From IMG/VR virus record IMGVR_UViG_3300014206_000001, positions 2,645-66,644 of that record: a DNA stretch of 64,000 nt, one strand, 5' to 3'. Source of the DNA: a virus. Lineage: Duplodnaviria; Caudoviricetes. The first letter of the stretch is position 1. Each line of letters opens with the position of its first letter. The translations under genes and the position numbers were made by a program. The notes under the pieces are model-generated. The model searched no databases, was not told where the DNA came from, and saw only the letters and a list, made by a program, of their open reading frames with translations. This document shows, piece after piece, positions 6,088-49,046 of this stretch.

Positions 6088-6493
6088 ACTCTCGTTCAAC
6101 CTTCTTGCTGTATGCAGTATAGTCTCCCGGATTCCACTTTCTTATAGCACACTGTATATCTTTATCGGGATTATAATGGTTCTGAATGATATTAAATATC
6201 TCTATTGATTTTTGTTTTGAATACCTATCTTTCAACTTGTACCTATTCTCTTTTACAATCCTATTTGCATCCCTTAAACAGATAGGAGTTATTTGTAATA
6301 TACCTACATCGTTCGCATATCCTACAGCTAAAGAATCACCACCAGATTCTACTTCTATCATAGCTTCTATTAATATCTGCCAAAAATCCACCTCTTCAAC
6401 TGGTACAATATTATGTTGTATAACATATAATTCCGGATTAATTCGGATACCAGTCATTATAATTAGTATTAGTAGTATTGTTTTCTTCTTCAT
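6038..6493 (-). CDS. Lytic transglycosylase (SLT-like) with N-terminal signal/anchor
   Basis: AMIEVESGG..DVGILQITP..AIRKWN motifs; hydrophobic N-terminus MKKKTILLILIIMTG. Confidence 0.8.
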   Translation of the reverse strand: MKKKTILLILIIMTGIRINPELYVIQHNIVPVEEVDFWQILIEAMIEVESGGDSLAVGYANDVGILQITPICLRDANRIVKENRYKLKDRYSKQKSIEIFNIIQNHYNPDKDIQCAIRKWNPGDYTAYSKKVEREFNKICPDSYSEYCSSE

Positions 6494-7212
6494 TACGTAT
6501 AGTATTCTACCCATTTATTTAATGCCCTGCATACCTGTCCCGGGTTCCATTCTTTGCCCATAGAGGTCTTTTCTCCTGTTCCATTCAAAGTATTGCATAT
6601 ACTTTCTAAAGTGTCGCCACGTGTACGTAATGACGAAATTAAAAGATATTGTCTTTTCTTAATTGGATCTCTTGCCATGTCTATTTTCTTTTTATATGCA
6701 GCAGCTATATGTGCCTCATCCATAGACGCACCTTTTCCTCTTCCTAAATGGGTTATTTTTTTGCCTTTTTTAGATATGTGGTGTCCGTTCTTTTTAATAT
6801 CTTTCTTAATCTGTTTTAATGCTTGTTTAGTACGCAAAGCAATTAGTAATGCTTCTCGTTCAGCAATAGCAAAAAACAATATAAAGGTAAATCTATCGGC
6901 ATTCGGGATATCACAGCAAACTAAATTACCTTCTCCTAATTCTGCCATAACGGCCAACGCATCATCAAGATTCCTGAATCTATCTGATTTATATATAATC
7001 AGCTTTGCTCCATTCTTTTTACAGCAGTCAATAGCTTTTCTAAGCTGTACACAATGAACTAAGTCTGTTCCCGTGTACACTTCGCTAAAAGTTTCTATTA
7101 CTTTTCCATCTTTGATGAAGTAATCAATAATATCTGATTGAGCATTTAATCCCAGTCCTGAATCTCCCTGTTTCTTCGTTGAAACACGAAGATATTTGAC
7201 ATATTTTTCCAT
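6493..7212 (-). CDS. Small serine recombinase (resolvase/invertase family)
   Basis: YLRVSTKKQ catalytic Ser motif, SGLGLNAQ, KSDRFR, AEREALLIALRTKQAL and a C-terminal HTH-like region. Confidence 0.9.
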   Translation of the reverse strand: MEKYVKYLRVSTKKQGDSGLGLNAQSDIIDYFIKDGKVIETFSEVYTGTDLVHCVQLRKAIDCCKKNGAKLIIYKSDRFRNLDDALAVMAELGEGNLVCCDIPNADRFTFILFFAIAEREALLIALRTKQALKQIKKDIKKNGHHISKKGKKITHLGRGKGASMDEAHIAAAYKKKIDMARDPIKKRQYLLISSLRTRGDTLESICNTLNGTGEKTSMGKEWNPGQVCRALNKWVEYYT

Positions 7213-11000: not shown

Positions 11001-11096
11001 TTAAAGTTTAATAAAATACATTTCGTAAACTATCAACAGCCCGGCAATTACTTCCAGGGCTGTTAGTGCTGTTTGTTCAATTCTTTTATAGTTCAT
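11001..11096 (-). CDS. Small membrane peptide (31 aa, absent from ORF track)
   Basis: MNYKRIEQTALTALEVIAGLLIVYEMYFIKL; A-rich leader. Confidence 0.5.
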   Translation of the reverse strand: MNYKRIEQTALTALEVIAGLLIVYEMYFIKL

Positions 11097-11189
11097 TTTG
11101 TTTTTCTTTTAATAATAATAACCGCCCGGAGCGGGTTAATTCTTTTGCTCTTTGTTCGCATTTTCGCCGGTTTTCTTTTATTATGTTTT

Positions 11190-12050
11190 TCATTTTAATA
11201 AATTAAATGTCACGCCCTCAATTTTTAAATTCGCTGCATCAAATTGCTCTTGTGTTACTTTGTCTTCGTAATCTTTCCAATTAAACACGGCTTTTTTGCT
11301 ATGGTTATAATAAATAAAATTATTTAAAGGAAGATTTGCAGATATAACAGCCCTTTTTACTGTAAATTCCAAATTTGCCTCAAATATCGCTTTGTCTCTT
11401 TTTGTCATTATCTCAAAAAGTTTTTTATTATTCTCATCTGCAATCTTTGCTGCTTTGCGTTCTTCGATCTTTTCGGGCGTGTATTGTCCGGCTTCTTCTT
11501 TCTCCTTATATTCTTTTATTTCTGCGGCTGTTGGTTTTATATATTCCCGTTTTTTACTATCGTTTAAAAATTCGTTACCTGTCCATTCCTCCAGAATCTT
11601 AATTGCTTTGTTCGCTTTTGCTTCCCATTTTTTAGGCAAACCTGATAAATATAAAAGCATTGAAAAATGATCTTCATTTTCTGCATCAGTAAGGAAAAAA
11701 TAATCTTTTTCATTGCAATTATAATACCTACAAAATTCTTTTTTTGTTAGTCTCTTGATTTGATAAAATCCGTTTCCCACTGCATACATTGGCGCACCTG
11801 AAAAATCGCATAAATGAAGATCTTCAAAAATTTGAAATTCTGGAAAATTCTTTGCTATTTTATTACCTATTGCGCCGCCGCAAAGAATATATTTTTCTAT
11901 TCTGGGCTTATGGGCTTCATAACTTTCTCCTGTTATTGCAAAATCTTGGTACCCATTGTGGCACGGGTCGCCTAGGCTTACTTTAACTTCATACTGCGTT
12001 CCGTCTTTGCTTGTTTTGCTTGTTTTATATACTAAATTATTTGTTTTCAT
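11190..12050 (-). CDS. Hypothetical early protein (286 aa)
   Basis: Long ORF; motifs GDPCHNGYQDFAITG and LHLCDFSGAPMY. Confidence 0.7.
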   Translation of the reverse strand: MKTNNLVYKTSKTSKDGTQYEVKVSLGDPCHNGYQDFAITGESYEAHKPRIEKYILCGGAIGNKIAKNFPEFQIFEDLHLCDFSGAPMYAVGNGFYQIKRLTKKEFCRYYNCNEKDYFFLTDAENEDHFSMLLYLSGLPKKWEAKANKAIKILEEWTGNEFLNDSKKREYIKPTAAEIKEYKEKEEAGQYTPEKIEERKAAKIADENNKKLFEIMTKRDKAIFEANLEFTVKRAVISANLPLNNFIYYNHSKKAVFNWKDYEDKVTQEQFDAANLKIEGVTFNLLK

Positions 12051-13864: not shown

Positions 13865-13920
13865 ATCATTTAATTTTATGGCCTTTTGGCCGTGTTTGTT
13901 ATTATTTCTTTTTGTTAATA

Positions 13921-13952
13921 CGAAGATAGGGTAAAATATTTATATAAACAAA
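13921..13952 (-). promoter_or_regulatory. Leftward Bacteroidota sigma-A type promoter
   Basis: Minus strand TTTG-N20-TATCTTCG (one mismatch to TAnnTTTG) upstream of the early operon. Confidence 0.65.
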
Positions 13953-14528
13953 TAAAACATACATTATTTTACATGAATATTTAAATATATCGTATGTTTT
14001 ACAACATGTTTTATAAATAGTAATTTATTATTTTCCACTGGAAACTATTTCCATAAGAAACTATGTGAGGATAAACTACATGTTTGTAGTGTTTGTGTCA
14101 ATATTTTTGCCTTTATGCTTTATTATTTGTATTTAATCTGTCTATGTTAAAGTATTACTTTAAGTGAAGGGGGCTAATGTGTTGAGTATCAATTGATTAT
14201 GACGAAAAATGCATAAAAAAACGCTTAACTAAAGTCTTAGTTTGCTTTTTTTCGCCTTTTATTTTTTCACTATCAAAAAAAATAATGATTAATAACTTTT
14301 TAACCTTTTTACGGGTCTTAAACGTCCGATACTGACGTGTAAAACTTTGTCTATCAATTTATACCCCCCGTACCCCCTAAAACATTTTGGAGCCTTGAGT
14401 TTTAGTCAGATATTCAAAATTTTTTTTTATTTTTTTGAAACTATTTACGACAAGTTTGAAAGCCATTTTGGAGCAAAACTGAGGAATTATAGCTAAAAAG
14501 GGTCTTTTGTGGGTGTCTAAGAAAATTC

Positions 14529-14763
14529 TGTAGTACTTGTAGTATGATGTAGTATTACGTTTTGCCTCTGTAAGGTGCATATATATTAGGTTTGTAGTAC
14601 TTGTAGTACTTGTAGTATGTTTCCACGTGCGCATACACAACTATGGTGTTGTGCTCTAGACGTCCTAGGAAAAGTACTACATTTACTACATCTACTACAA
14701 ATCCCATGGATACTGGTAGTACAGAGGCAAAGTGAAATACTACACGATACTACAAATACTACA
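14529..14763. repeat. 235-bp imperfect palindrome with 6 TGTAGTA + 6 TACTACA iterons; candidate replication origin
   Basis: TGTAGTA at 14529, 14538, 14548, 14593, 14602, 14611; TACTACA at 14675, 14684, 14693, 14738, 14748, 14757; spacing is mirrored. Confidence 0.9.
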
Positions 14764-14823
14764 CTTTTTTTTGGGCAAAAAAGTTAGTTCTCTGGTATTC
14801 AATTACTTGACTGATTTTTTAAA

Positions 14824-15052
14824 CGTGGTTAGGGTGAGTATCAGTTAGTTACGAGGATTTTGAAAAATTAAGTACCTGATTACCAATGTGTTGAAAATTG
14901 AAAAAGTCGAAAAATGCGAAGGGGAGGGGGGGTAGATGGACGTGGTTAGGGTGAGTATCAATGAGTTACGGCAAAAATAAAAAGTTAATATATTGAATAT
15001 AAGGAAGTTAAAAATTGAAAAACAGCAAAATCACGAAGGGGAGGGGGGGGTA
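14824..15052 (+). repeat. Two 117-bp-period direct repeats ending in G-tracts
   Basis: CGTGGTTAGGGTGAGTATCA at 14824 and 14941; CGAAGGGGAGGGGGGG(G)TA at 14917 and 15034. Confidence 0.9.
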
Positions 15053-15207
15053 TTTTGAGGTACCCACTACAAAAAAACGAGGTTTTTGCGTATTTTTTGT
15101 CGTAAAATAAGCTATGGGAGATATGTGGCACAGTAGTTTACACCTCTATAAAGGGTATTACTGATGTGTGAATGAGAAATGCCTATTTTTGGAAAAAACA
15201 AAAATAA

Positions 15208-15239
15208 TTTGGAAAAAACAAAAAGTTGTCGTAGATTTG
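15208..15239 (+). promoter_or_regulatory. Rightward Bacteroidota promoter
   Basis: TTTG-N20-TAGATTTG; the -33 region is duplicated (TTTGGAAAAAACAAAAA at 15188 and 15208). Confidence 0.8.
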
Positions 15240-15261
15240 GAGAATTAAAAATATAAAAGTT

Positions 15262-19885: not shown

Positions 19886-20602
19886 ATGGAAGAACAAAAA
19901 CTGAATTTTAAAGTAAACGAAGACCCTACAATTGTAGTAGTTAGCGAAGATATTGAAAAGAAAGCTATCAAAGCGTGTACTGATTTTAATTTTGTCGCAC
20001 ACGTATTTCTTAGTCATCTTAAAAACAAAAGACTGACAGAGGGTGAAAAGGAAACATATTTGAGTTTGTCTGAAAGCCATATAAGAGCCTTTGTTTCCTT
20101 GTTTGATTATGATAGTGTTTTGAAAAAACAAGCAGAAGAGCGGTATAGCGAAATTAGAATAACCAACGAACAAAACAGAGAATTAAGGAAACAATTAGGT
20201 GGAAAAGTTTCTAACGAAGATTTACGAGAACGATTGAAAATCATAAAAGACGAATTTTATAAATGGTGGAGCATATATGGTTTTGGACATTGTAGTGATG
20301 GTGTTTTTAATGGATATATGTTTGAGACTAAATTATCAGGATATGTTTATGGCAGCCATTACGATGAGCGTGAATCAGAAAAAGAAAAAGTAGAAATGCT
20401 GAGGGGTCATGGTTTTGAAATTGACGATAGCGATGGGTGTTCCGTAATTTCTTCTGACAATAATATAAGATTGCTCAAAAATCTTTTAGAGGGAAAATAT
20501 GCAAGTGTAAAGATAGGTGAGATAAAATCTACTTATTATAATAATAGGAATCAAATCAGAGATATAAAAATATCCATAAGCGATTTTAATGACTTTGATT
20601 AA
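19886..20602 (+). CDS. Hypothetical protein
   Basis: 238 aa tiled ORF. Confidence 0.7.
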   Translation: MEEQKLNFKVNEDPTIVVVSEDIEKKAIKACTDFNFVAHVFLSHLKNKRLTEGEKETYLSLSESHIRAFVSLFDYDSVLKKQAEERYSEIRITNEQNRELRKQLGGKVSNEDLRERLKIIKDEFYKWWSIYGFGHCSDGVFNGYMFETKLSGYVYGSHYDERESEKEKVEMLRGHGFEIDDSDGCSVISSDNNIRLLKNLLEGKYASVKIGEIKSTYYNNRNQIRDIKISISDFNDFD

Positions 20603-20612
20603 GAACAAAACG

Positions 20613-20810
20613 ATGGAAGAACCAAAAGGAATAAATATAAACGGAATCACATGGTACTCTGCTGAGGAAATAGCATTATTACTTGACAAAACACCTGAGA
20701 CTATCAGGTTATGGGTAAAAAGTGGTAAAATAATAAAAAAGCGAGTTCGTGGTTTTAAATCTTACAGACCAACTAAAGATATAGTTGTAGTTAAAGCATA
20801 TAAAGTATGA
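20613..20810 (+). CDS. Excisionase/MerR-like helix-turn-helix protein
   Basis: WYSAEEIALLLDKTPETIRLWVKSGKI. Confidence 0.75.
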   Translation: MEEPKGININGITWYSAEEIALLLDKTPETIRLWVKSGKIIKKRVRGFKSYRPTKDIVVVKAYKV

Positions 20811-22258
20811 ATTATAAAGATTCGTTAGAATTTATATGCGAAAAAATCCCTGATGCCATGCACGGAGAAGGGGCAGCAGATTCACGTGTAAATTCATTGA
20901 AAGAAGCTAAAATGGCTACTGCTATTGCAATTGCTATGCAAAATGGAAATTTCCGGAAAGGAGATAATACCCTGTATATGTATGATGGATTAAAGTACCA
21001 GAAACTTGATACACAGTCTATTAAATCATTAATATGTGAGATATTAGTGAACATAAAGGTAGGGGTGGTTTACCAGGTAAATTCTGTAGATAAGATATTC
21101 AAGCGTATTTTAAATGATATGCACATACAGGAATTTAAGCCATCTAAAACTGTTATTAGTTTTCGCAATAGAGTTCTTGACCTGAAAACTATGAAAATAC
21201 ATCCTCACGAACAACGATGGATGACACGTATTTTTCTTGACATAGATTACGATCCTTTAGCTGGATGTCCATTATGGAAAAAAACTTTGGCAGACATAAT
21301 CTGCAATGAAGATCTGGTTAAGGTACTACAGGAGTTTTTAGGGCTGACATTTGTTGATAGAGATGAATTAAACGTTGAAGCTTGTCTATTTTTGTATGGT
21401 AGTGGTGCAAATGGTAAGAGTGTAGTAGAAACTACAATCCGTAATCTTCTTGGTGAGAACTGTTCTTCTCATGAGATTTCTCAGCTATGTACGAGTAGTG
21501 ATTCTGATTATTATACTGCTATTGCTGATGGGAAATTATTAAATTTTGCTCCGGATATGGGCGATAAAGATTTTTCAGGCGGTAGATTTAAGGCAATAGT
21601 CAGTCATCAGCCAATTATGGTACGACCTATCGGAATGGCTCCATTCGAGGCTAAGGATATGCCATTACTTGCTGCCTGTGTGAACAAAATGCCTATTACT
21701 ACTGATTCATCAAATGGTTATTGGCGAAGAAATAAAATCATAGAATTTACCAAAACATTCAAGGAAGCAGATCAAGATAAGATGCTGAAAAGTAAACTAA
21801 AAGCAGAGATGAGCGGTATTTTCAATTGGATAATGGAGGGTCGTGCGAGAATCATAAAACAAAAAGGACAATTTACCAACTCTGAAAAAATGGAAGAAGT
21901 AATAAAAAGAGTAAGGGTTGAATCAAGTAGTGTTCTTTCTTTTTTAAAAGAGAAAGGGTACACAGGCTTTCTTACTGAAAATCAAAGAGGAGTAGAGGTT
22001 AAAATGCACAGTGTTACTTTGATGGAAGAATATTTAGAGTATTGCAAAACATGGCGAAATTCTCCGAAGTCAAGGTCTAATCTGAAATTTGATTTATTAC
22101 AAGTAGGTTTCCAATATCGTGAAAAAATGAGAGTAGATTACAAAGTTTCCAATGGTTTTGTTTTTTACAAAATAGAAGAAGAAGAAGAAGGAACTTTCGG
22201 AGATGAGGATGTTCAAGGGAAAGAAGATAAAGAATTTGATGGAGAACTACCATTCTAA
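20807..22258 (+). CDS. D5/P4-family SF3 replicative helicase
   Basis: D5_N-like FRNRVLDL, Walker A GSGANGKS, and TTDSSNGYWRRNKIIEF. Confidence 0.9.
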   Translation: MNYKDSLEFICEKIPDAMHGEGAADSRVNSLKEAKMATAIAIAMQNGNFRKGDNTLYMYDGLKYQKLDTQSIKSLICEILVNIKVGVVYQVNSVDKIFKRILNDMHIQEFKPSKTVISFRNRVLDLKTMKIHPHEQRWMTRIFLDIDYDPLAGCPLWKKTLADIICNEDLVKVLQEFLGLTFVDRDELNVEACLFLYGSGANGKSVVETTIRNLLGENCSSHEISQLCTSSDSDYYTAIADGKLLNFAPDMGDKDFSGGRFKAIVSHQPIMVRPIGMAPFEAKDMPLLAACVNKMPITTDSSNGYWRRNKIIEFTKTFKEADQDKMLKSKLKAEMSGIFNWIMEGRARIIKQKGQFTNSEKMEEVIKRVRVESSSVLSFLKEKGYTGFLTENQRGVEVKMHSVTLMEEYLEYCKTWRNSPKSRSNLKFDLLQVGFQYREKMRVDYKVSNGFVFYKIEEEEEGTFGDEDVQGKEDKEFDGELPF

Positions 22259-22270
22259 AATATAACAATT

Positions 22271-22672
22271 ATGAAAAAGAAAACAATAATACACGAATTT
22301 GATCCAGTAATTTATCCCGTAAAATTATGGGTATGTATAACAACCAATTTTGAGCCTTTGAAAGAGAGGTTTTATGATTCTGAAGGGAAAACAGAATTGG
22401 ATTTGGAAGATTTAAAAGATGCGGCAGCAGCTATAACTTGCAGAGTGGTTTCTAAAGAACATAATGATGTTGGAATATTAATAGTTTTTACTCTTCATAA
22501 ATATACAGACACTGAAAGAATTACGCATGAAGCCGCACACGCTGTAGATTTTGTATGGGAATATATAAAAGAGGATACTCCTAGTCCGGAAGCTAATGCT
22601 TATTTGTCCGGATGGATAGCTAAATGTTGCTGGGAAGTTAAAACAGGAAAAGGGATGAAACATCATGACTGA
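22271..22672 (+). CDS. HEXXH putative metallopeptidase
   Basis: ITHEAAHAV followed by EANAYL. Confidence 0.55.
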   Translation: MKKKTIIHEFDPVIYPVKLWVCITTNFEPLKERFYDSEGKTELDLEDLKDAAAAITCRVVSKEHNDVGILIVFTLHKYTDTERITHEAAHAVDFVWEYIKEDTPSPEANAYLSGWIAKCCWEVKTGKGMKHHD

Positions 22673-23600
22673 CCAAATAGACTACGACAAAGTATTTGAA
22701 ATCTTGCCTGAAATTATGGGATTTTCTTTAACGAGATATAGAAACAGGTGGATTTCAAATAGAAGAATAAATGGAGAGATACACCATAGGTTTGATAAAT
22801 TATCATGCAGAAAAGTAAAAAATGGTATTCAGATATTGGAACAGGGTGGTGAAAAATTGACACTATTTAATTGGATGGTGAAATATGGCGGCTGTGCAAC
22901 ACGGAAGGATGCCTATGACGCACTTATTAAACAAAATGGTAGAAATGTATTAATTATTCCAGAAACGCCACCAGAGCCTTTAAAATACGTTTCAAAGATA
23001 TATGTAAAAAAATCTATTTACTACAGAAAACATAATGGTGATATTTTATATAAATGGCTTTGCAAAAAGATAGATAGATTTAAAGTAGCTGTAGTTTTCG
23101 ATGAATATTGTGTAGGTTCCACATTAATGCCTAAATTTAAAGTTCCTGCTACTGTTTTTTGGTATGTAAATGAAAAAGGGAGAATATTTTATGATAAACT
23201 AATTGCATATAGAGACAATGGACATAGACGAAAAGATTGTTCTGCGAATAGGTGTTTTAGAACATATTCAGGATTCAGAGGTAGATGTTTATTTGGATCT
23301 CACCTATTAAAAAAAAGAAAACCTAATCAACGAGTAATAGTAGTTGAGAGTGAGAAAACAGCATTGATGGCTAAGATGTGTTTTAGAAATGAAATATGGT
23401 TAGCTACCGGTGGGAAAACTTATCTCAGGAAAGAAGATATAAAAGATGATTACACTTTGATTGCAGATATTGATGCTTGGGATGATTGGCATAAAAAGTT
23501 TCCCAATCAATGTCCACAATGGTGGAAATCATTTCCGGAATGGAAACATAAGAAAACAGATGATTTTGGAGATTACTTGGAATGGAGATTAAACAAATAA
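22665..23600 (+). CDS. Toprim-type primase-like protein (DUF6371-like)
   Basis: CLFGSHLL..VIVVESEKTAL..WLATGG..DIDA..DDFGDY. Confidence 0.7.
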   Translation: MTDQIDYDKVFEILPEIMGFSLTRYRNRWISNRRINGEIHHRFDKLSCRKVKNGIQILEQGGEKLTLFNWMVKYGGCATRKDAYDALIKQNGRNVLIIPETPPEPLKYVSKIYVKKSIYYRKHNGDILYKWLCKKIDRFKVAVVFDEYCVGSTLMPKFKVPATVFWYVNEKGRIFYDKLIAYRDNGHRRKDCSANRCFRTYSGFRGRCLFGSHLLKKRKPNQRVIVVESEKTALMAKMCFRNEIWLATGGKTYLRKEDIKDDYTLIADIDAWDDWHKKFPNQCPQWWKSFPEWKHKKTDDFGDYLEWRLNK

Positions 23601-47011: not shown

Positions 47012-47111
47012 TTTGCGTATTAAATAAAAATAACTATATTTACACAATTGTTTTCATAATTGTTAGTTTAGTTTATTAGGAAAGAGAATCCGTTCTGGGT
47101 TCTCTTTTTTT
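47012..47111 (+). ncRNA. Candidate small RNA: promoter, about 65 nt with no ORF, then terminator
   Basis: TTTG-N19-TATATTTA at 47012-47042; body CAATTGTTTTCATAATTGTTAG...; hairpin 47081-47107 plus U-tract. Confidence 0.45.
47081..47111. terminator. Intrinsic terminator between convergent transcription units
   Basis: AAAGAGAATCC-GTTCT-GGGTTCTCTTT followed by Ts. Confidence 0.85.
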
Positions 47112-48807
47112 AGTACAACCCAATATAATCATTCTCTGTAAATTCTATTTCCTTTTCCTTCCTTGCCCTACCATCGAGTATAAATATTGATCTATATACT
47201 ATAATATCAGTATAATCCGGAGAATAACCATATCTGGATTTAAACTCTATTTTATTATTATAATAGTATTTATTACCCTTTGTAGTCATCCTGAACACAT
47301 CTGATTCCTCTTGTAGAATATCTATAAGGTATTTTGGTGTTTTACTTTTGCCATGAGGAAATTGCCTGTATTTATCTATCGTACATGATATTTTACCTGT
47401 TTCAAGTAAGAATTGTGTCTTACCCATTAATTGAGATCGTATATTGAAAAATTGCTCTGTAGTCACTGGGTTACCTGCTTCATCAATCTCTTGTATTGGC
47501 CTTACGTTTGATGTTATAGCACGACCATTTGTGAAAGCTTTTAAATAAGAACCAACACCTGTAGCATCAAAAGCAAAATTGCCTATCTTAATTCCATATT
47601 TATTAAGCATAAATTCAATCCAAGGTGGAAGTTGCTTTAAATCTCCATTAAATAACTCTACTGCTGTTATCGTAAGTTCCTTCCATATCATCAAAGCGCA
47701 ATTATCTCCACCATCTGCAACATCTAATGTGCCATACATCTCTTCACCTTCCTTGTATGGATTAATCCATATGTTGCTTATCATTTGTTTTGATACAGTA
47801 GCCTCACCTTCCGTGTCTTCATTCCAGTTTTCATAGAACAGCTTATTTGTTTCTGTAGAACCTAAATTGAAAACATTGGCTGCATGACCACCCTGTGTAG
47901 CTGACATCAATATTCTATTCTCTGTCATCTTACATGGTCTAAATGTTATACTCTTGACCATCATCTCCGGAGTTATGTTTATCGCCTTCATGTCTTCCGG
48001 GATAACTATATTACACCTCTTTACTAACTCTTCTCTTGAATCGCCCCAAACTATCTCATGTGGTGTGTTTCCTTTTATGTGACAATATCTTATCTTGCCT
48101 AACTTCGCAGGATCAACAACTGCTCTACCGTCTGGTAATTCTTTTAACCACCAATCTATAAGCACCCTTGTAAAATGGTGAGAGTTTGTATTGAATGTCA
48201 TTATAAACTTACTCTTCATGTGTGAGCTATCTCTATTTCTACTGAGTAAATAGTTTACAATTTTCCAATCATGGTCAGTGGCTTCATCTACAAATATTCG
48301 TGAATCCTGAAAGTTCTTGAACTTTTCTTGTGCATCAGATAATCCTTTTTCCGTTGATGCAGAGAAGTTAGCATGAGTAAATGTTATAGATGTTCCCCAT
48401 TCCGGAAAAGTGAATGTTGGGTTATCACTTCCGGAAAACTCACAACCTGCAAATCCCATATATAATCTTTTTGCATCATCAATGATACCTCCGGCTCCGG
48501 ATTTTGTTGAAACTAATTGCTTTTTAATTATAAGACAACCATAACCGGGTTGGTCTATTCCATCTAGGGCTGCAAGTAATAATCCTAAGGTCTTACCCCC
48601 ACCAGGCTGACCACCAAGTAGTTGTATGTCCACATCCTCTGTTATCATTATTTCTTGTAGTCCCGGCTGTGGCATAAAATCTATACCTTTTCTTAGTTCT
48701 ACACCATCAACTTTTGTCCACCCATCATCACCTACTACACCCAGTTTTCTTTCTACTTTTGGGTATAACTTAGGGAAGTGTGTGTCTATGTTTCTTAGTT
48801 TAAGCAT
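47110..48807 (-). CDS. Terminase large subunit
   Basis: PQPGLQ, Walker A GGQPGGGKT, Walker B IFVDEAT, TFN, nuclease LDVADGGD, FDATGVG, SPDYTD. Confidence 0.9.
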   Translation of the reverse strand: MLKLRNIDTHFPKLYPKVERKLGVVGDDGWTKVDGVELRKGIDFMPQPGLQEIMITEDVDIQLLGGQPGGGKTLGLLLAALDGIDQPGYGCLIIKKQLVSTKSGAGGIIDDAKRLYMGFAGCEFSGSDNPTFTFPEWGTSITFTHANFSASTEKGLSDAQEKFKNFQDSRIFVDEATDHDWKIVNYLLSRNRDSSHMKSKFIMTFNTNSHHFTRVLIDWWLKELPDGRAVVDPAKLGKIRYCHIKGNTPHEIVWGDSREELVKRCNIVIPEDMKAINITPEMMVKSITFRPCKMTENRILMSATQGGHAANVFNLGSTETNKLFYENWNEDTEGEATVSKQMISNIWINPYKEGEEMYGTLDVADGGDNCALMIWKELTITAVELFNGDLKQLPPWIEFMLNKYGIKIGNFAFDATGVGSYLKAFTNGRAITSNVRPIQEIDEAGNPVTTEQFFNIRSQLMGKTQFLLETGKISCTIDKYRQFPHGKSKTPKYLIDILQEESDVFRMTTKGNKYYYNNKIEFKSRYGYSPDYTDIIVYRSIFILDGRARKEKEIEFTENDYIGLY

Positions 48808-48833
48808 TTTATTTGTAAAAATAATGAAAAATA

Positions 48834-48866
48834 TTTGATTATTGTTGATAAATAATATTATATTTG
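48834..48866 (+). promoter_or_regulatory. Bacteroidota promoter for the Com/tRNA/head operon
   Basis: TTTG-N21-TATATTTG. Confidence 0.75.
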
Positions 48867-48869
48867 TAT

Positions 48870-49046
48870 ATGGAAAATAAAACAGTATCATCGAGTTGTT
48901 GCAAATACAAGTGTGATTGCTGCGGGAAAATACTTCCTGTGGCAATTATAAATCTAAAAGGAGAGGTGACATTGTCAGTTTTTTGTAGACATTGTAAATC
49001 AACTACGATTATAAATGTCAAAAATTGCGAAGTAGAGCAGAGGTAG
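48870..49046 (+). CDS. Com-like (Mu) zinc-ribbon protein
   Basis: YKCDCCGKIL..LSVFCRHCKSTTII. Confidence 0.7.
   Translation: MENKTVSSSCCKYKCDCCGKILPVAIINLKGEVTLSVFCRHCKSTTIINVKNCEVEQR

Follow-up and report, generated by a model that had tools for sequence, protein, structure and literature searches.

The P4 origin consists of short (8-bp) iterons, direct and inverted, which are bound by the winged-helix C-terminal domain of alpha. In the core origins of SV40/polyomavirus and papillomavirus, palindromic 5-6-bp sites direct two oppositely oriented SF3 hexamers (large T antigen, E1), and the DNA melts to the sides of these sites (AT tract, early palindrome) rather than in the middle. The SaPI Rep proteins recognize penta- to heptanucleotide iterons through the winged helix of the C-terminal domain, and SaPI origins contain 6-12 iterons in two opposed sets, one hexamer being thought to bind each side (PMC9371898). 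Iterons L2-L4 of SaPI5 are made of TGCAACC plus an AA spacer, i.e. 7-nt words with a 9-bp period, and in the cryo-EM structure of PriRep5 on its origin three neighbouring C-terminal domains of one hexamer occupied three successive 7-nt iterons and a fourth C-terminal domain swung out to an inverted iteron (bioRxiv 10.64898/2026.10.17.759575). In Gram-negative PICIs, pri-rep is combined with an AlpA-type HTH gene and with an origin that has two sets of iterons (PMC6092414).

The locus described here has two opposed sets of short iterons as well. The SaPI and PICI sets lie within approximately 250-300 bp, and here 6 + 6 exact 7-mers were found within 235 bp; the 7-nt iteron and 2-nt spacer of SaPI5 give a period of 9 bp, and the triplets found here have a period of 9-10 bp. 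The array belongs to a 66.6-kb tailed phage of Bacteroidales-phage type, not to a satellite. The source genome is an IMG/VR record of 66,644 bases with a 123-bp terminal repeat at the end, rated complete by IMG/VR/CheckV, and the window (the whole stretch of 64,000 nucleotides that was analysed) corresponds to genome positions 2645-66644. The array was located inside a 1.4-kb stretch without credible ORFs (13865-15261) between divergent gene blocks. To the left of this gap is a leftward block of small genes and to the right a rightward block of about 20 small ORFs followed by the replication module, in which the genes for a 73-aa HTH_17 protein, an SF3 helicase, a 133-aa ORF and a DUF6371 protein follow one another in this order. 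Elsewhere the genome encodes NrdD, a homing HNH, an SNF2-type helicase, SbcCD-like functions, ThyX, portal, large terminase, major capsid and tail proteins. The features referred to below are as follows.

14074-14091, no strand: two outward-facing, one-mismatch iteron copies (weak)
14364-14379, no strand: C-rich run left of the array, with G-rich counterparts at 14921-14933 and 15039-15051
14408-14447, no strand: A/T tract (T9-A-T7) about 80 bp left of the array, 40-mer stability -39.5 kcal/mol
14529-14554, + strand: outer-left triplet of TGTAGTA iterons, exact matches starting at 14529, 14538 and 14548; its mirror is 14738-14763
14561-14572, + strand: left copy of the 12-bp box TTTGCCTCTGTA, exact in both arms
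14593-14617, + strand: inner-left triplet of TGTAGTA, starting at 14593, 14602 and 14611, with a 9-bp period
14618-14674, no strand: 57-bp centre, AT 0.53, containing the hairpin 14636-14653 and the axis 14646
14675-14699, - strand: inner-right triplet (TACTACA on the + strand), exact matches at 14675, 14684 and 14693
14720-14731, - strand: right (inverted) copy of the 12-bp box TTTGCCTCTGTA, exact
14738-14763, - strand: outer-right triplet of iterons, exact matches at 14738, 14748 and 14757
20589-20810, + strand: 73-aa HTH_17 (AlpA/excisionase-type) protein, its gene overlapping the helicase start (Pfam E 6.6e-5, below the gathering score)
20807-22258, + strand: SF3 self-loading helicase composed of a D5_N tier and an ATPase tier, followed by a C-terminal winged helix (approximately residues 385-456; Pfam, NCBIfam, PDB, AF2, Foldseek)
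22665-23600, + strand: DUF6371 protein (Pfam), with homologues adjoining the helicase in loci L128, L135, L137, L373 and L374

A preliminary description of this DNA had reported six TGTAGTA copies on the + strand facing six on the - strand, with spacings of 9, 10, 45, 9 and 9 in exact mirror register. This was reproduced in full with the axis at base 14646, and the matching spacer arms that it had also reported were found to be the 12-bp box TTTGCCTCTGTA, exact at 14561-14572 (+) and 14720-14731 (-). The hairpin CACAAC-N6-GTTGTG, which had been placed at the axis, is present at 14636-14653, but it is centred on 14644.5, 1.5 bp off the main axis. Two extra copies had been described as a pair at 14075-14090; both were recovered (at 14074 and 14085), but each matches with one mismatch and the two face away from each other; they are possibly an auxiliary site, possibly chance.

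The word TGTAGTA was found 27 times in the window compared to 8.6 times expected from shuffling, a number that was reached in none of 100 shuffles, and 12 of these copies are packed into 235 bp. No other place in the window contained any non-trivial 7-mer at five or more copies per 300 bp. There is no second TGTAGTA cluster in the genome, the next densest 300-bp stretch having 6 one-mismatch matches compared to 14 at the array. In a 240-bp palindrome scan of the whole genome, the array had 81 of 120 complementary positions compared to a genome mean of 32.6 (sd 5.1; z approximately 9.5), and it was the strongest palindrome of the complete 66.6-kb genome, the runner-up reaching 59 of 120. The six iterons of an arm all point one way, and the two arms are turned toward each other. 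Nowhere is the element richer in GC than in its centre (14618-14674), where the AT fraction is 0.53 compared to 0.69 in the gap and 0.67 in the window.

When each arm was compared to its mirror partner, complementarity was complete at the iteron positions (42/42) and in the 12-bp box (12/12), but only 27 of the remaining 63 positions were complementary, which is near random for the composition. The similarity is not uniform and the arms are therefore not a recent inverted duplication. These findings show that the iterons and their geometry are under purifying selection, the sites and their spacing having been kept while the rest drifted. The conservation of one 12-bp box per arm suggests that it is a candidate binding site of a second factor; no exact copy of TTTGCCTCTGTA was found outside the array in the window.

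The distance from the array to the flanking start codons was 500-665 bp on both sides, and the array lies 6.0 kb upstream of the helicase start. The least stable DNA was found outside the array, at 13932-14030, 14256-14295, 14408-14447 and 14977-15016. The A/T tract at 14408-14447, which is at about the level of the cut-off for the least stable ~1% of the window (-39.4 kcal/mol), is a candidate unwinding element. Alignment of the flanks showed that a comparable T-run precedes the arrays of the phages BI-TP1 and PF672P2, described below, and that similar C/G-rich runs flank both.

Other repeats were observed in the gap. To the right of the array there is a tandem unit of approximately 110 nt (14823-14932 and 14940-15049; 73% identity, 117-bp period), and GAAGGGGAGGGGGGG, a G-rich run, ends each copy. 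Three direct copies of the motif G(G/T)TGAGTATCA were found, one of them at 14181-14191, and all exact or one-mismatch-with-context copies of this motif lie inside the gap. Three 32-nt direct repeats approximately 122 bp apart were also seen beside the iterons of relatives in the L135 group. The ~110-nt units might be tandem promoters of early genes, encode a small RNA or act as an accessory element of the origin. At 14032-14063, approximately 170 bp upstream of the leftward block, two adjacent 16-bp units were found (TTTCCACTGGAAACTA and TTTCCATAAGAAACTA), the first with the internal dyad TTTCC-N3-GGAAA; this element looks like a dimer operator. Farther away, positions 6493-7212 on the - strand encode a small serine recombinase (239 aa, Resolvase N-terminal domain) that shares 65% identity over 158 residues with a recombinase of the IMG/VR contig L373; the helicase of L373 is only 35% identical, which suggests a mobile or exchanged module.

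The P4/D5-type helicase that the preliminary description had assigned to 20807-22258 was confirmed by matches to D5_N and DUF5906 and by a score of 142 bits against TIGR01613 (cut-off 108.7), the model of the P4-family primase C-terminal (SF3) region, as expected of a P4 alpha-family initiator. The sole PDB sequence match of the protein was PriRep5 of SaPI5 (7OLA/7OM0, E 1.3e-7). An AF2 model built on 59 homologues had a mean pLDDT of 91 and ended in a winged-helix pattern (beta-alpha-alpha-beta-beta, residues 395-456). The top Foldseek match for this model was again 7ola (TM 0.65/0.72 over approximately 460 columns), with the D5-type helicases of ASFV, mpox and vaccinia ranking behind it. The modelled fold thus points the same way as the sequence match, to a structural homologue of SaPI5 PriRep5 with the C-terminal winged helix included. 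The helicase has no fused primase domain, and the DUF6371 protein is possibly a separate primase. A putative cognate helicase with an SF3 ATPase and a C-terminal winged helix is accordingly encoded on the same element as the array.

The 73-aa HTH_17 protein is probably a regulator of the replication operon, and a weak relative holds the same position in loci L135 and L128. The preliminary description had listed the HTH among the proteins that might bind the repeats; it looks more like the AlpA-type regulator preceding the PICI pri-rep than like an iteron binder.

The closest helicase relatives (P0001-P0035) were 41-63% identical and were found on contigs of up to 72 kb. The nearest named phages were Parabacteroides phage PF672P2, with a helicase 40% identical, and Bacteroides phages LoVEphage and BI-TP1 (32%). 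In PF672P2 there is a 1.37-kb gap just upstream of a small ORF and the helicase gene, equivalent to the gap in the window, and the word AAGGTAGG is present there in 2 + 3 copies in both orientations, with an axis near position 11415 of locus L137, 0.4 kb upstream of the helicase. BI-TP1 and LoVEphage share the word TGTATAGT (eight and seven copies, respectively, in both orientations, 0.55 kb upstream of the helicase), and their arrays were the strongest palindromes of their own loci (z 7.5 and 8.0). The L135 group of IMG/VR loci (L124-L135) has 2 + 2 mirrored copies of a 12-mer whose core is the LoVEphage word, located in a 0.9-kb gap 6.5 kb upstream of the helicase, a distance that resembles that in the window. 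L418, L404 and the L425 group have words of their own, in both orientations and upstream of the helicase gene.

Left of the arrays of both BI-TP1 and LoVEphage, homologues of the 286-aa leftward gene of the window were found, indicating that the junction is the same in all three. These findings show that the same array type is conserved at the equivalent junction in distant relatives sharing the helicase; the lack of conservation in relatives, which the preliminary description had named as evidence against its reading, was thus not observed. The array-to-helicase distance in relatives ranged from 0.06 to 6.5 kb upstream. In the 46 loci that had full flanks, 51 clusters were counted, of which 40 were 0-4 kb upstream of the helicase gene, and a cluster of at least five copies within 7.6 kb was found upstream in 11 of 23 helicase groups compared to 1 of 23 downstream; the related loci were retrieved via the helicase, so that part of this association comes from the search design.

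The arrays of LoVEphage, BI-TP1 and PF672P2 are unannotated in their GenBank records, and the LoVEphage paper does not mention an origin. The unannotated iteron palindromes span 11039-11270 in LoVEphage (MW660583; locus L139) and 11128-11390 in BI-TP1 (locus L138). The LoVEphage record has short hypothetical CDSs across or beside the array (e.g. locus positions 11196-11339 and 11422-11532), which are probably spurious.

A blastn comparison of the gap with GenBank phages gave no match, a scan of genome contigs gave a single distant match, and scans of IMG/VR and metagenomes for double or triple TGTAGTA patterns recovered mostly 9-bp coding tandem repeats. Non-coding TGTAGTA triplets with an 8-9-bp period in both orientations were also seen in unrelated contigs of metagenomic or viral origin, at L299:3409-3650, L250:1743-2005, L233:394-673, L329:875-1350 and L194:7232-7470. 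Those of L299 lie directly after the gene for a 1017-aa DUF5906 (SF3) protein and those of L250 directly before the gene for an 826-aa Prim-Pol protein; no homology of these two neighbour proteins to the window helicase or to its C-terminal domain was detected. The triplets in these five loci count as analogous examples only.

From the sequence, the modelled fold and the analogy to PriRep5, the array is predicted to be the replication origin of the phage, read by the PriRep5-like helicase with one ring per arm; we consider this probable, with room for doubt. The two-fold symmetric loading platform for a P4/D5-type helicase that the preliminary description had envisaged is supported by the conservation of the array at the junction, the PriRep5-like fold and the grammar of the PriRep5 origin. 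In such a mechanism, the winged-helix C-terminal domains of a hexameric helicase would read the six 7-bp TGTAGTA iterons that point the same way in one arm, and each arm, being two triplets with a 9-10-bp period, would load one ring. Since the arms face each other, two rings would assemble in opposite orientation, the nearby DNA would melt, and the rings would leave in opposite directions, giving bidirectional replication. Melting would probably take place at the A/T tracts flanking the array or in the spacers within the arms, and not in the GC-richer centre.

The divergence of the helicase is of interest in relation to its predicted role as the reader of the iterons. Compared to PF672P2, the C-terminal domain was 19% identical and the rest of the helicase 45%; across the relatives, the identities were 16-30% for the C-terminal winged helix (residues approximately 385-460) and 23-51% for the remainder. 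Such fast divergence fits a specificity domain, but relaxed constraint would look similar in an alignment. A TGTA core was frequent among the words of the family (TGTAGTA, TGTATAGT, TATGTAT, TGTATAA); the look at covariation between the iteron word and the C-terminal domain was anecdotal, and the automatic calls over 95 helicase loci were noisy.

Several observations weigh against an origin. The centre of the array has more GC than the DNA around it, where SaPI/PICI origins have an AT-rich core; the array does not adjoin the helicase gene but lies 6 kb upstream; and early regulatory regions also sit upstream of replication genes. GC skew, a check proposed in the preliminary description, did not discriminate. 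The cumulative minimum was found at 14383, in the gap, where it coincides with the switch of gene strand, and the skew therefore cannot separate replication from transcription here. A per-gene fit of skew to transcription versus replication direction gave t of at most 2.4 over 4-14 kb, and the third-codon skew gave t 0.3 at the axis.

Among the alternatives, the one that survives best is that the array is an operator, in which a small phage DNA-binding protein on the twelve sites controls the divergent early units as a master switch, as the preliminary description had also considered; we regard this as unlikely, though it deserves to be weighed. The binder might be the HTH_17 protein or an early protein of 60-100 aa without annotation, and the array might serve autoregulation of the replication genes. 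The array does lie between divergent gene blocks, and in PF672P2, BI-TP1 and LoVEphage it is located only 0.3-0.5 kb upstream of the operon formed by the small ORF and the helicase. Promoters were sought with the Bacteroides-type motifs TTTG and TAnnTTTG, which replaced a sigma-70 promoter/terminator scan, uninformative for a host of Bacteroidota type. A candidate TTTG-N22-TAGGTTTG was found in the left arm, with TAGGTTTG at 14587, and its TTTG belongs to the left copy of the conserved 12-bp box, where it may double as the -33 element according to its position. On the other hand, both start codons are 500-665 bp away, the best promoter of this type for the right block (15208-15239) is outside the array, and no leftward promoter motif of this type was found in or near the array. 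Twelve asymmetric 7-mers in 9-bp triplets follow the grammar of iterons and not that of the dyads bound by HTH repressors. In temperate relatives the array and the module of CI-type repressor and integrase are approximately 10 kb apart, and the genes next to the gap gave no match to a DNA-binding family. Plasmid iterons are commonly both origin and operator, and an operator function may likewise coexist with an origin function here.

The 286-aa protein of the left block was also considered as an iteron binder and was rejected, as it is absent from the loci of the L135 group, which share the LoVEphage word. At 15187-15227 an exact 17-bp direct repeat, TTTGGAAAAAACAAAAA, was observed with a 20-bp period; it provides TTTG elements upstream of the -7 box TAGATTTG at 15232, and together these are likely the promoter of the rightward early block.

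It is very improbable that the array is a partition (centromere-like) site, on which an RHH or ParB-type adaptor would polymerize along the repeats to segregate an extrachromosomal prophage. ParR and omega sites (parC of R1, the omega heptads of pSM19035) do typically consist of short direct and inverted repeats whose period is less than a helical turn, and both LoVEphage and BI-TP1 encode a ParA-like protein. That gene, however, is approximately 7 kb from the array in both phages and not adjacent, and across relatives that have no ParA in the fetched loci the array tracks the helicase, not ParA. ParA, ParM, ParB and RHH were undetected in the window proteins scanned, with limited sensitivity for small RHH proteins, and no operon of an adjacent adaptor (RHH or ParB) and a partition NTPase was found among the flanking or larger window proteins scanned.

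A packaging (pac/cos) platform for the small terminase, the other alternative named in the preliminary description, found no support and is scarcely credible: some pac sites are repeated short TerS-binding motifs, but 32 kb separate the array from the large terminase gene (47110-48945), the place of the array in relatives goes with the helicase and not with the terminase, and in the GenBank records of PF672P2 and BI-TP1 the array is internal, far from the record ends. Finally, a structural palindrome without protein-site logic (a relic of inverted duplication, a cruciform or recombination hotspot, or a long hairpin RNA) has a probability close to negligible: the array strand can form a hairpin of 249 nt (-54 kcal/mol, z -8.7) and long-hairpin (plant miRNA-precursor) models of Rfam match it, but these scores are far below gathering (51.7 compared to 144 bits), perfect complementarity is restricted to the iterons and the 12-bp box, and selection for a hairpin is unlikely because pairing is not kept along the whole stem, both signals being by-products of the mirrored sites.

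The predicted origin may be generalized, though with considerable doubt, to a strict 6 + 6 design used by the clade. One iteron would be read per subunit and two triplets per ring, the GC-rich core would not melt, the origin would be uncoupled from the helicase gene, the 12-bp box would be a second factor site in each arm, and the rings would stand back-to-back or face-to-face and open the DNA outward. If this is true, the array would offer a fully symmetric template from nature for capturing the two-hexamer loading intermediate of self-loading SF3 helicases, which is still unseen.

Replication origins have so far been unannotated in the Bacteroidales phages of the gut, among them the LoVEphage group, which is highly prevalent. 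These results give an origin candidate for the whole clade defined by the helicase and name the C-terminal winged helix of the helicase as its likely reader. To our knowledge, the window array is the cleanest version, with twelve perfect sites in exact mirror register. The authors of the PriRep5 work regard the assembly of two self-loading SF3 hexamers as still an open question, and the array is an attractive substrate for structural work on it. Replicons or vector engineering for Bacteroidales phages are a possible use.

Compared to described systems, the array is not a plasmid iteron origin of the Rep_3/RepA type. The 17-22-bp direct repeats of that type are absent, the iterons being 7 bp and in both orientations, and no Rep_3-type initiator was found among the scanned ORFs. 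The SV40 and papillomavirus origins are a precedent for a centre that is not AT-rich, as a resemblance of mechanism and not of membership, and the outward opening of the 6 + 6 design would be more like SV40 than like the central melting proposed for SaPI. Their origin-binding domains, however, are unlike the winged helix in fold, they have 4-6 sites and not 12, and they belong to eukaryotic viruses. The P4 ori/crr system is alike in that its helicase is of the P4-family primase C-terminal (SF3) family (TIGR01613). In contrast, P4 needs the second cis element crr with the same iterons, whereas the genome described here has no second cluster; alpha carries its own primase domain, and the P4 iterons are not exactly two-fold symmetric.

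LoVEphage, BI-TP1 and PF672P2 share with the window a homologous helicase (32-40% identity) and the same junction between divergent blocks; their iterons are likewise short and mirrored, with C/G-rich and T-rich runs on the flanks. They differ in their words (TGTATAGT, AAGGTAGG), in having fewer copies and looser symmetry, and in the position of the array 0.3-0.5 kb from the helicase operon; the centre in BI-TP1 is AT-rich.

The SaPI/PICI origins were found to be the closest in design. The three-tier helicase (N-terminal tier, SF3 ATPase, winged-helix C-terminal domain) is shared, with PriRep5 as the best match in both sequence and fold, and an AlpA-type HTH gene lies directly upstream of the helicase gene as in the Gram-negative PICIs. 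In contrast, the AT-rich centre between the two sets is absent (AT 0.53), and the array precedes the helicase by 6.0 kb, whereas the SaPI origin is directly downstream of rep. Because both of these features are lacking, the element is not called a member of the SaPI origins. Further features unlike SaPI/PICI are the exact mirror register, the single iteron direction and 12-bp box in each arm, the complete phage in place of a satellite and the helicase without a fused primase. By analogy, the element may be described as working like a SaPI-type origin and as a variant of that design. It extends the known SaPI/P4 origin design, with a different core and no new principle, to a new phage lineage.
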